A stretch of DNA of 4,168 nt, taken from IMG/VR virus record IMGVR_UViG_2529293146_000007, positions 1 through 4,168 of that record; one strand, 5' to 3'. A program made the translations under genes and the position numbers. The stretch comes from a virus (Duplodnaviria > Heunggongvirae > Uroviricota > Caudoviricetes). Positions within the stretch are counted from its first letter, which is position 1, and each line of letters starts with the position of its first letter. The notes under the pieces are model-generated. The model ran no database searches, was not told the origin of the DNA, and saw only the letters and a list, made by a program, of their open reading frames with translations. Below, piece after piece: positions 1,303-3,693 of the stretch.

Positions 1303-1355
1303 TTTCTGGTGGCGTTTAGCGGTATCAGTTTTACTCCGTGACTGCTCTGCCGCCC
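1303..1355 (+). ncRNA. dicF: DicF small regulatory RNA (Hfq-dependent sRNA known to repress ftsZ and other targets)
   Basis: The 53-nt stretch tttctggtggcgtttagcggtatcagttttactccgtgactgctctgccgccc, followed by TTTTT, matches my recollection of K-12 DicF, with an apparent difference or two in the 5' third. It sits about 170 bp upstream of dicB, as in Qin. Identification is from memory, not a covariance-model search. Confidence 0.8.
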
Positions 1356-1360
1356 TTTTT
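1319..1360 (+). terminator. Intrinsic terminator forming the DicF 3' end
   Basis: Imperfect hairpin: gcgg (1319-1322) pairs with ccgc (1350-1353) and cagt (1326-1329) with actg (1341-1344), followed by T5 at 1356-1360. Hand-folded only. Confidence 0.5.
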
Positions 1361-1364
1361 AAAG

Positions 1365-1512
1365 TGAATTTTGTGATGCGGTGAATGCGGCTAAGCGCAC
1401 GCGGAACAGTTAAAACCAAAAACAGTGTTATGGGTGGGTTCTCTGTATCCGGCGTTAATTGTTAACTGGTTAACGTCACCTGGAGGCACCAGGCACCGCA
1501 TCACAAAATTCA
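1365..1512 (+). repeat. Perfect 19-bp inverted repeat bracketing the dicF-dicB spacer: arms 1365-1383 and 1494-1512, 110-nt loop
   Basis: Left arm tgaattttgtgatgcggtg is the exact reverse complement of right arm caccgcatcacaaaattca. The right arm ends 5 nt before the dicB Shine-Dalgarno (gagga, 1518-1522). The loop contains three gttaa units (1454-1458, 1461-1465, 1469-1473) and tandem ggcacc (1485-1490, 1492-1497). Confidence 0.9.
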
Positions 1513-1998: not shown

Positions 1999-3003
1999 AT
2001 GAGTAAAGTCTTTATTTGCGCCGCCATTCCGGACGAACAGGCAATAAAGGAAGAAGGTGCTGTGGCTGTAGCCACAGCCATTGAAGCTGGCGACGAACGC
2101 CGTGCTCGAGCAAAATTTCACTGGCAATTCCTGGAGCATTATCCGGCTGCTCAGGACTGCGCTTATAAATTTCTTGTTTGCGAGGATAAACCTGGTATAC
2201 CCCGCCCTGCCCTCGATTCCTGGGATGCTGAATATATGCAGGAAAACCGCTGGGATGAGGATTCTGCTTCTTTTGTTCCGGTTGAGACTGAATCCGATCC
2301 GATGAACGTCACTTTTGACAAGCTGGCCCCTGAAGTACAGAACGCTGTCATGGTTAAGTTCGACACATGTGAAAACATCACCGTTGATATGGTTATTAGC
2401 GCGCAGGAATTGTTGCAGGAAGACATGGCAACATTCGACGGACATATCGTTGAAGCGTTGATGAAAATGCCAGAAGTTAACGCCATGTATCCGGAGCTTA
2501 AGTTGCATGCCATTGGGTGGGTTAAGCATAAATGTATTCCTGGTGCTAAATGGCCCGAAATTCAGGCAGAGATGCGCATCTGGAAAAAACGTCGCGAAGG
2601 TGAACGCAAGGAAACCGGAAAATACACGTCTGTTGTTGATCTCGCCCGCGCCAGAGTCAATCGACAGTACACTGAAAATTCAGCAGGAAATATCTGCCCT
2701 GTCATTGCTGTCATTCATCGCGAATACAAGCAGACATGGAAAACACTGGATGACGAACTGGCCTACGCTCTCTGGCCTGGTGATGTGGGTGCCGGAAACA
2801 TTGACGGCAGCATCCATCGCTGGGCAAAAAATGAAGTTATCGACAACGACCGCGAAGACTGGAAGCGTATCTCGGCATCGATGCGCAAACAGCCTGATGC
2901 CCTTCGCTACGACCGCCAGACTATTTTTGGCCTTGTCCGTGGGCGTCCGATCGACATTCACAAAGATCCTGTGGCACTGAACAAATATATTGCGAATACC
3001 TGA
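1999..3003 (+). CDS. ydfE: Conserved prophage protein of unknown function, 334 aa; YdfE-like by position
   Basis: Long uninterrupted ORF; ATG at 1999 with GAGG (1986-1989) and a 9-nt spacer; stop TGA at 3001-3003. It lies immediately downstream of ydfD, as ydfE does in Qin. The name is by synteny and memory only; all overlapping track ORFs are shorter and out of frame or antisense. Confidence 0.8.
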   Translation: MSKVFICAAIPDEQAIKEEGAVAVATAIEAGDERRARAKFHWQFLEHYPAAQDCAYKFLVCEDKPGIPRPALDSWDAEYMQENRWDEDSASFVPVETESDPMNVTFDKLAPEVQNAVMVKFDTCENITVDMVISAQELLQEDMATFDGHIVEALMKMPEVNAMYPELKLHAIGWVKHKCIPGAKWPEIQAEMRIWKKRREGERKETGKYTSVVDLARARVNRQYTENSAGNICPVIAVIHREYKQTWKTLDDELAYALWPGDVGAGNIDGSIHRWAKNEVIDNDREDWKRISASMRKQPDALRYDRQTIFGLVRGRPIDIHKDPVALNKYIANT

Positions 3004-3023
3004 CTACAAAGGGCGTGTTTGAG

Positions 3024-3368
3024 ATGAAGGAACAGATCTGGGCGCTGTTGATGTTCTCTCGTCGTCAGTACCAGAAACTGATGCAGTGGAAACGGGTATC
3101 TGATATCGCAAAAACTGAATGCGCGGTGGAAGTTGAACCATCTGTAGAGCGTGAGGGGCCGTTCTATTTCCTCTTCGCCGATAAGGATGGCGAAAAATAC
3201 GGTCGCGCAAACAAACTTTCTGGTCTGGATAAGGCGCTGGCTGCTGGGGCTACTGAAATCACGAAAGAAGAATATTTTGCCCGCAAAAATGGTACATACT
3301 CGGGTTTACCGCAAAATGTTGGTGCCTCTGAAGACCGCACAGCCAGAGCCGGTAAAAGTTACCGCTGA
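3024..3368 (+). CDS. Hypothetical protein, about 114 aa; C-terminal boundary doubtful
   Basis: ATG at 3024 (the track starts at GTG 3015), 21 nt after the upstream stop. The last ~25 codons overlap a stretch where frame 1 reads more protein-like, including a QPEPV motif at 3340-3354. Confidence 0.5.
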   Translation: MKEQIWALLMFSRRQYQKLMQWKRVSDIAKTECAVEVEPSVEREGPFYFLFADKDGEKYGRANKLSGLDKALAAGATEITKEEYFARKNGTYSGLPQNVGASEDRTARAGKSYR

Positions 3369-3693
3369 CGAAGTAAACAAAATTATGCAGGCAGCCAATA
3401 TCAGCCAGCCTGACGCCGATAAGTGCTTGCTGTATCACGTGGTGAATTTGTTGAAGGGATTAGTGACCCGAATGATCCGAAATGGGTTAAGGGGATCCAG
3501 ACCCGCGATTCTGTGAACCAGAACCAGCATGAATCGGAACGGAACTACCAGAAAGCGGAACAAAACAGCCAAATGCGTTACAAAACGAGCCAGAAACGAA
3601 ACAGCCTGAACCAGTGGTGCAACAGGAAGTGGAAAAATCTGCACCGCTTGCGGTCAGAGCGGTGGCGGCAACTGCCCTGATTGTGGTGCGGTG
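3289..3693 (+). other. Frame-mosaic, repeat-rich region; best guess a frameshifted or decaying gene, possibly continuous with flanking ORFs, or alternatively overlapping small genes
   Basis: By eye, the frame with common E. coli codons changes: frame 1 (about 3289-3445), frame 0 (about 3423-3560), frame 2 (about 3560-3640), then frame 1 again (3610-3918). No frame is open throughout. Each apparent junction sits at a short homopolymer (A5 3285-3289, T3 3447-3449, A4 near 3561, A5 3633-3637). Candidate standalone ORFs are frame 1 3289/3316/3385-3516 and frame 0 GTG 3423-3680, none with a good Shine-Dalgarno. Confidence 0.3.

Follow-up and report, generated by a model that had tools for sequence, protein, structure and literature searches.

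The perfect inverted repeat found in the spacer between dicF and dicB is P1, the extended helix which closes a prophage RNA domain, both conserved and pseudoknotted. The repeat resides in a stretch of phage DNA of 4,168 nt, hereafter called the window. P1 measures 21 bp in the RNA; it probably is cut by RNase III, and closes a domain of the STnc100/PasD type which occupies the dicF-dicB spacer. The repeat is genuine and has a function, but it has largely been explained already, an RNase III cut having been reported in 1990. The link of the spacer to STnc100 appears to be new.

The inverted repeat and the domain it closes

The 5' arm (1365-1383, TGAATTTTGTGATGCGGTG) and the 3' arm (1494-1512, CACCGCATCACAAAATTCA) of the repeat measure 19 nt, are 100% complementary, as an earlier note on this DNA had stated, and are spaced by 110 nt. 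This is the sole perfect inverted repeat within the 4,168 nt of the window, the ten others measuring 12–21 nt and being 75–92% complementary. The same note described the repeat as far beyond chance, and our own estimate agrees, since about 8.7e6 position pairs multiplied by 4^-19 leave about 3e-5 such repeats to be expected in 4,168 nt. In the RNA the helix is lengthened by the pairs G1364·U1513 and A1363-U1514, and reaches 21 bp (1363-1383 / 1494-1514). The region 1361-1516 folds with a minimum free energy of -66.8 kcal/mol (z = -6.7 relative to dinucleotide shuffles).

The repeat is flanked by two known genes, both on the plus strand. The DicF sRNA and its Rho-independent terminator span positions 1303-1360 (Rfam RF00039, 68.6 bits at 1304-1355), with the T-tract at 1356-1360. 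DicF measures 53 nt in the K-12 annotation, and alignment with the latter sets its 5' end at window position 1303. The dicB gene (1530-1718, 62 aa, ATG at 1530; Pfam PF05358, E 2.5e-39) is preceded by a Shine-Dalgarno (SD) sequence, GAGGA, read from the sequence at 1518-1522. The placement proposed for the repeat, 5 nt after the T-tract and 5 nt before the SD, holds, as does the notion of a long RNA duplex, bounded by the DicF terminator on one side and by the dicB SD on the other. The 3' end of P1, at 1514, is 3 nt from the SD. The start codon of dicB is in turn found inside a small A/U-rich predicted hairpin (1526-1543, GAUAAUG-GAAA-CGUUAUU), which might further limit initiation. More downstream, the gene which follows ydfD (1999-3516) matches the 823-aa phage exonuclease family phrog_2082. 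The match is split into 1999-3003 (profile 1-332) and 3015-3368 (profile 354-448), plus overlapping frames, and the gene looks like either a pseudogene or a series of sequencing frameshifts.

The 110-nt segment enclosed by the arms had been viewed as a loop carrying stray repeats. It is instead a conserved structured domain, homologous to STnc100. The domain measures about 150 nt, and is made by the helices P1, H1, H2, H4 and H5 and by a loop pseudoknot, all on the plus strand. The 5' strand of P1 (1363-1383) includes the 5' arm and the tetranucleotide GGUG (1380-1383), a core conserved family-wide; the 3' strand (1494-1514) includes the 3' arm and the core CACC (1494-1497). The AAU junction (1384-1386), which connects P1 to H1, is conserved throughout the family as GGUGAAU. 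H1 (1387-1402) is a hairpin in which 1387-1391 pair with 1397-1402, with A1399 bulged and the loop UAAGC. H2, found by RNAalifold, measures 3 bp (1403-1405 / 1448-1450) and encloses the variable region 1414-1447. The 5' strand of the pseudoknot, CAGUUAA (1407-1413), is complementary to the H4 loop and covaries across the family; the 3' strand, UUAACUG (1462-1468), is made by residues of that loop. H4 (1451-1477) is a hairpin of 8 bp (1451-1458 / 1470-1477), separated by the unpaired A1478 from H5 (1479-1493, CCUGG-AGGCA-CCAGG), a hairpin featured as CCGGG/CCCGG in the Rfam consensus. The elements of the core fold (GGUG/CACC, AAU, H1, H4 and the CCNGG-AGGCA-CCNGG hairpin) are all located within 1380-1497. 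P1 core, H1, H2, H4 and H5 were found by RNAalifold with no structure supplied.

The fold explains the internal repeats noticed previously. These are all present, the GTTAA units being four (1409-1413, 1454-1458, 1461-1465, 1469-1473) rather than three. GTTAA units make the H4 stem and the pseudoknot; the CCTGG/CCAGG hairpin placed at 1479-1493 is H5; the tandem GGCACC (1485-1490 and 1492-1497) corresponds to the 3' strand of H5, followed by P1. Some other assignments were considered and set aside. The put antiterminator RNA of phage HK022 (PMC9378689) was set apart by its description, which is that of an RNA of about 70 nt with two stem-loops in a V shape and no closing helix. Resemblances of GGUGAAU or GGAGG to tRNA-like, sigma-70 pause or CsrA-binding elements, suggested by eye, were dropped for want of support.

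Covariation, strand and DNA-level readings

Covariation was analysed in an alignment of 59 distinct copies of the leader subfamily. Standard pairs fill 95.8% of the cells, versus 32–42% when the 3' partners are slid by 1–3 columns. Double-sided changes were found in 13 pairs (8 in P1, 4 in H4, 1 in H5), and none of 500 shuffles matches any of the observed covariation measures. P1 is paired in 93% of the cells among the 59 aligned sequences, with compensatory changes at 8 pairs. In H1, a G-C pair is changed to A-U in the contig L012. The third pair of H2, as drawn by RNAalifold, is A-U in 38 sequences and C-G in 11, and the middle pair of H5 is U-A in 52 sequences and G-C in 7. Double compensatory changes mark the outer half of P1 in L068 and L061. 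The Klebsiella phage copies, in which P1 measures 14–17 bp, carry TTGCAAAACC in place of TCACAAAATTCA as outer sequence.

The pseudoknot was derived in the present analysis, and is missing from the Rfam consensus structure line shown with the match. Pairing was monitored in 74 representatives sharing at most 92% identity. The segment after H1 and the H4 loop form at least 6 bp in 55 of them, versus 17% of mismatched controls. The strands vary in sequence as complementary sets, such as CCAGTC/GACTGG, ATCAGC/GCTGGT, AGACTGACAAA/TTTGTCAGTCT and ACTGGATA/TATCCAGT.

The perfect repeat is a minority allele, found in 9 of the 64 dicB loci scored in IMG/VR. The 3' arm features CACTGC in 48 of the 64 loci, and 18 of these 48 also feature GTGGTG in the 5' arm; with these alleles G-C pairs of P1 become G·U pairs, one or two being gained in this way. 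Most dicB loci hence have an imperfect repeat in the DNA and an intact helix in the plus strand RNA. It had been suggested to look for the repeat, and for covarying changes, in the Qin prophage of K-12 and in other dicB loci: CACTGC, and hence G·U pairing, is found in Qin, compensatory changes are found elsewhere. Because the arm variants are mismatches in DNA, and C·A oppositions in the antisense RNA, selection acts on the plus strand RNA. Both strands of the perfect allele fold equally well (z = -6.7 vs -7.3), hence folding energy is uninformative on the strand, which was assigned from the G·U alleles and the orientation of the genes.

These alleles bear on two readings, raised in the earlier note, in which the repeat would act at the DNA level. 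A palindrome bound by a protein, or able to form a cruciform, would be consistent with the perfect symmetry seen in this window. We regard this reading as highly improbable: the arms are separated by 110 bp, the common C-to-T changes destroy the symmetry in the DNA of most dicB loci and keep G·U pairing only in the plus strand RNA, and double compensatory changes are found in L068, L061 and the Klebsiella copies. According to the other reading, a small MITE-like element would have inserted between dicF and dicB, with the arms as its terminal inverted repeats. A perfect 19-bp inverted repeat around a segment of about 150 bp, with related segments at several places in prophages and phage-plasmids, has indeed the look of such an element. 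The flanks, AAAG at the left and TTGT at the right, are not direct repeats, and there is accordingly no target-site duplication. Copies are sense-oriented and syntenic in phage operons rather than dispersed; the arms differ, or are missing, in other copies which conserve the interior; and arm variants correspond to G·U-compatible transitions and compensatory pairs. The domain was found in 75 of 78 dicB loci, and no empty site was found among the 78. A mobile origin of the repeat is accordingly highly improbable.

In the remaining three dicB loci (L229, L274, L293) DicF and the domain are replaced, up to ...AAAATTCATTGTTGAGGA, by a Rha/Ash ORF located upstream of dicB (Pfam PF09669 and PF10554), and the match to the window begins again at AAAATTCATTGTTGAGGA, a sequence internal to the 3' arm. 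The position of the joint indicates that the arm marks the boundary of a module, and that the three loci are instances of module replacement.

Relation to STnc100 and genomic contexts

In a permissive Rfam scan, the full RF02076 (STnc100) model (1-206) was aligned to the window at 1353-1562 (38.4 bits, E 5.3e-06). The score is below the RF02076 gathering score of 47, and the window is not listed at the gathering threshold. The K-12 Qin, Rac, P7, P1 and Klebsiella copies are below the gathering score as well, and with such sub-threshold scores copies are missed by standard annotation pipelines. A scan of IMG/VR with CACCNGGAGGCACCNGGCACC identified at least 120 contigs and at least 102 distinct elements; canonical copies tagged by this sequence score 72–161 bits on RF02076 among the matches listed. 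By sequence comparison, the dicF-dicB spacer is a divergent, unannotated subfamily of the STnc100/PasD phage RNA family. A small ORF starting at an ATG after CACC in canonical copies was judged spurious, the ATG being lost wherever the P1 sequence varies.

BLAST searches show that the spacer is a separate module, which occurs apart from dicF and dicB. In E. coli genomes, the segment 1350-1514 recurs without dicF or dicB in Rac-type prophages, about 20 nt upstream of kilR. In P1-like phages and phage-plasmids the match is limited to the interior (1377-1500), and is found in the ban operon, about 40 nt ahead of terB/tciA; this segment only is what P7, D6 and P1 have in common with the window. 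Klebsiella phage copies are 72% identical. In an eight-way alignment two near-invariant blocks, TGCGGTGAATGCGGCTAAGCGCACGCGG and CGTTAATTGTTAACTGGTTAACGTCACCNGGAGGCACCNGGCACCGCA, are separated by a variable insert.

Copies reside in different contexts. Canonical copies are stand-alone among the matches listed, and are made by a promoter, the domain, a linker of 30–50 nt and a Rho-independent terminator, with a P1 of 6–10 bp. The contig L014 carries, downstream of a Q-like gene (phrog_753, E 1e-54), the promoter sequence TTGACA-N17-TAAATT, then two successive copies, each with a terminator after it, and finally a holin gene. Copies of the dicB/kilR type come after the terminator of an sRNA (DicF, or KilS in Rac), and are followed by an SD and a start codon, 32–45 nt from the second CACC. 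The genes found at this distance are unrelated, and include dicB, kilR, terB/tciA and small ORFs of Klebsiella and P1-like phages.

The length of P1 changes with the context. P1 measures 21 bp in dicB-type copies, about 10 bp, a one-nt bulge and about 11 bp in kilR-type copies, and 14–17 bp in Klebsiella phages. A P1 of 14–21 bp was found, among the matches listed, only in lambdoid operon-internal copies ahead of an ORF; the leader copies of P1-like phages, with a P1 of 9 bp, are the exception. Lengths were obtained from ungapped extensions and alignment counts, as duplexfold over-counts pairs across large internal loops.

Because the same domain is set 32–45 nt ahead of unrelated start codons (dicB, kilR, terB/tciA, small ORFs), it could work as a cis-acting leader, controlling the toxic downstream gene by structure-dependent translation or mRNA stability, the RNase III cut being incidental. 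Such a leader would possibly sense a ligand, a protein or temperature, and the long P1 would mainly hold the fold by the SD. The highly conserved junction residues and the covarying pseudoknot are reminiscent of ligand- or protein-binding RNAs, and the end of P1 is just 3 nt from the dicB SD. In contrast, most members of the family, among the matches listed, are stand-alone sRNA genes without a downstream ORF, a conserved alternative pairing able to sequester the SD is missing, leader copies of P1-like phages have a P1 of 9 bp only, and there is no known ligand or protein partner. We regard a purely cis-acting role as unlikely, and favor the reading in which cleavage of P1 by RNase III is central.

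Some loci are mosaics. DicF precedes the domain and kilR in L110, and a KilS-type upstream region precedes the domain and dicB in L032 and L215, indicating that the domain is also a recombination joint. In the Rac prophage of K-12 (L217, 343-603, minus strand), KilS ends with ...GGCGGCATCAG...CTGATGTCCGCCCTTTTT directly before the domain copy, and its terminator resembles the DicF terminator (window 1303-1360). Likeness and position of the terminators point to a layout common to Rac and Qin, in which an sRNA with its terminator, the domain and a division inhibitor follow each other. In L011 (8044-8230), L009, L024 and L062 H1 is of the GCGGC type, and a KilS-like TGCTGTGTGTAGTCCTGGCGGTACCAG... 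and a terminator come after the domain. DicF- and KilS-type sRNAs may derive, to judge from such sequences, from the 3' part of an STnc100-like gene.

Other arrangements were observed. Two to four STnc100-type copies within 1–4 kb, each with a terminator, are found in L014 (1100-1800), L019, L028, L029, L030, L084 and L104, and the copies often adjoin tRNA gene clusters (L010, L020, L029, as also P1 and P7). In the Klebsiella phages L007, L131, L186 and L205 the domain is followed by an unrelated small ORF, encoding either 40 aa or a membrane protein of 67–69 aa, and then by a YdfD homologue. This order indicates that in these phages the dicB slot is filled by non-homologous small proteins, leader and ydfD being kept. 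In L072 the domain is followed by a 282-aa ORF and then by kilR, an instance of a Rha/Ash-domain ORF interposed between domain and toxin gene.

Probable RNase III processing and known systems

Two DicF species matter here. According to the passages of PMC5069750 and PMC9438474 which cite Faubladier 1990, the 53-nt DicF is the product of termination, and a 72-nt DicF owes its 3' end to RNase III, which acts on full-length dicBF RNA. Counted from the DicF 5' end at 1303, 72 nt lead to a 3' end at about 1374 (1303 + 72 - 1), at the twelfth pair of the 21-bp helix. The cut in the 5' strand of P1 (1374/1375, plus strand) is thus inferred from DicF lengths which later papers quote, with an uncertainty of a few nt. 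A 2-nt 3' overhang, assumed on the geometry described in PMC6212723, would set the partner cut in the 3' strand (plus strand) at 1504/1505. The pairs between the predicted cuts are G1373-C1504 and U1374-A1503; a G-C pair is preferred at such positions in vivo (PMC6212723), and one of the two is G-C here. The same paper defines the substrate of RNase III as approximately two turns (roughly 20–22 bp) of uninterrupted double-stranded RNA, and the 21 contiguous pairs of P1 (1363-1383 / 1494-1514) fit this size. The earlier note had called the duplex an RNase III substrate. Very probably it is: the helix is 21 bp long, and the 3' end of the 72-nt DicF, as quoted in the citing papers, maps to about 1374 in the 5' arm. 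The reading of P1 as an RNase III site is supported, and is essentially in the literature already, as far as these citing passages represent it.

Additional data on the region are of different kinds. In Table S1 of Gordon 2017, the rnc mutant yields 26 reads at position 1649470, between dicF and dicB (about window 1392), and neither wild-type replicate yields any. This signal supports the RNase III reading weakly, being low in count and unstranded, drawn from a table which is long and noisy, and located some 9 nt beyond the 5' arm. In a 2023 preprint the one role described for RNase III is in forming, upstream of DicF, the 5' end of a 190-nt species. Accounts of the role of RNase III hence differ between the preprint and the passages citing Faubladier 1990. 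Counted back from the DicF 3' end, 190 nt lead to about 1167-1171. A second inverted repeat (1101-1113 / 1159-1171; 13 nt, 92% complementary) has these positions in its 3' arm. DicF would then lie between two hairpins cut by RNase III, 1101-1171 and P1. The region of about 320 nt upstream of DicF (983-1300), which contains the 190-nt DicF precursor, has no plausible plus strand ORF. It is kept at 90–98% identity in more than 4000 E. coli genomes, where it is unannotated, and gave no match in the Rfam scan.

In the mechanism we propose, the domain would form only in transcripts which read through the DicF terminator, and RNase III would cut their long P1. The 5'-strand cut, at about 1374, would generate the 3' end of the reported 72-nt DicF; the 3'-strand cut, at about 1504/1505, would excise the domain (1375-1504, about 130 nt of RNA). 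Against this mechanism, a stable spacer RNA of about 130 nt has no report in the literature, and dicB and dicF-dicB terms are absent from the RIL-seq supplement searched. The dicB mRNA would be left with a short, 5'-monophosphorylated leader, starting 13 nt before the SD. Structure, homology, covariation and contexts come from the present analysis, and the RNase III dependence of the 72-nt DicF comes from the literature, through the citing passages. We infer the placement of the 72-nt end within P1 and the second cut, as well as possible effects on dicB mRNA stability or translation, such as the switch put forward in the earlier note, which would couple DicF 3'-end formation to dicB.

STnc100, PasD1/PasD2 and the overlapping EcOnc27 are prophage-encoded Hfq-associated sRNAs of Salmonella and pathogenic E. 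coli. The literature on them deals with Hfq association and candidate targets, gives no role to the 5' domain, and does not link dicB, dicF or kilR to the family. The homology raises the possibility that the dicBF operon has in this spacer a third RNA working in trans, excised by RNase III and comparable to PasD, EcOnc27 and STnc100. This reading is compatible with the mechanism outlined above, as two staggered cuts in P1 would yield an RNA of about 130 nt with a 5' end resembling the primary 5' end of stand-alone copies. The leader copy, however, has neither the single-stranded linker nor the U-tailed terminator, the usual carriers of the Hfq-binding site, and such an RNA is missing from the K-12 RIL-seq tables searched. 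A trans-acting function of the excised RNA is in our opinion doubtful.

Similarly tentative, and rather improbable as a whole, is the broader idea that the spacer by itself specifies a gene product. The compact pseudoknotted module would be used by enterobacterial phages in three settings: the late region, after a promoter, between a Q-like antiterminator gene and a holin gene (seen in one contig, L014); after stx2; and before the host-takeover or toxic genes dicB, kilR and terB. The long P1 of leader copies might have evolved for excision by RNase III from read-through transcripts, and the conserved junctions and pseudoknot might serve a specific partner, gating the expression of cell-division inhibitors. 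The partner would be a protein, RNA polymerase, the ribosome or a small molecule.

As regards the inverted repeat, the outcome is chiefly a clarification: the repeat is an RNA helix already implicated in RNase III processing, and no mobile element. P1 provides a structural rationale for an RNase III cut which has been quoted for decades with, in the citing passages, no structure described. The added value is in the recognition of an STnc100-like domain common to the leaders of several prophage toxin genes, and of a long P1 specific, among the matches listed, to operon-internal copies. This widespread STnc100-like subfamily is unannotated because it scores under the Rfam threshold. The dicBF operon is a textbook case of a prophage operon which encodes a toxin and an sRNA, and bicyclomycin toxicity is due to the Rac gene kilR. 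One structured RNA set ahead of dicB, kilR, terB/tciA of P1 and Klebsiella phage ORFs is a common element, and offers a handle on how cryptic prophages limit or time the expression of lethal genes.

One of the closest known systems is the RNase III site of the 72-nt DicF (Faubladier, Cam and Bouché 1990). As quoted in later papers, this site is about 19 nt past the 3' end of the 53-nt DicF, that is in the 5' arm, and read-through transcripts are required. The passages citing it differ from the present description in that they deal with neither a structure, nor a conserved RNA domain, nor a second cut, nor an effect on dicB.

The KilS-kilR region of Rac, where KilS has been described (PMC8175672), features the same order: an sRNA, which ends in ...CCGCCCTTTTT, is followed by the domain, and the domain by the gene of a cell-division inhibitor. 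It differs since P1 has a one-nt bulge and G·U pairs, and sRNA and toxin are other genes. The K-12 Rac copy has in addition a G-to-A change in H5.

STnc100, PasD1, PasD2 and EcOnc27 share with the window the closing helix (GGUG...CACC) with AAU after it, the H1 hairpin and its ...GCG loop, the pairing of the H4 loop with the strand after H1, and the CCNGG-AGGCA-CCNGG hairpin abutting the 3' CACC. Like the window domain, they are confined to phages and prophages. The H1 stem is a variant, GCGGC... in the window and CCCCC...GGGG with a YNNGCG loop in STnc100. The stand-alone STnc100 gene has its own promoter, a linker of 30–50 nt and a Rho-independent terminator, none of which is found in the window copy, where the SD and the ORF of dicB take the place of linker and terminator. 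P1 measures 21 bp in the window, 6–10 bp in stand-alone STnc100 genes.

The T7 R sites and the lambda N leader, sib and cIII sites are RNase III sites in phage polycistronic early RNAs. Like P1, they are long intergenic duplexes in phage operons. Cutting at these sites separates functional RNAs, and the stability or translation of the neighbor gene can change. The T7 and lambda sites are simple hairpins with an internal loop, whereas the duplex in the window closes a conserved, five-helix pseudoknotted domain, which occurs also as a stand-alone gene.
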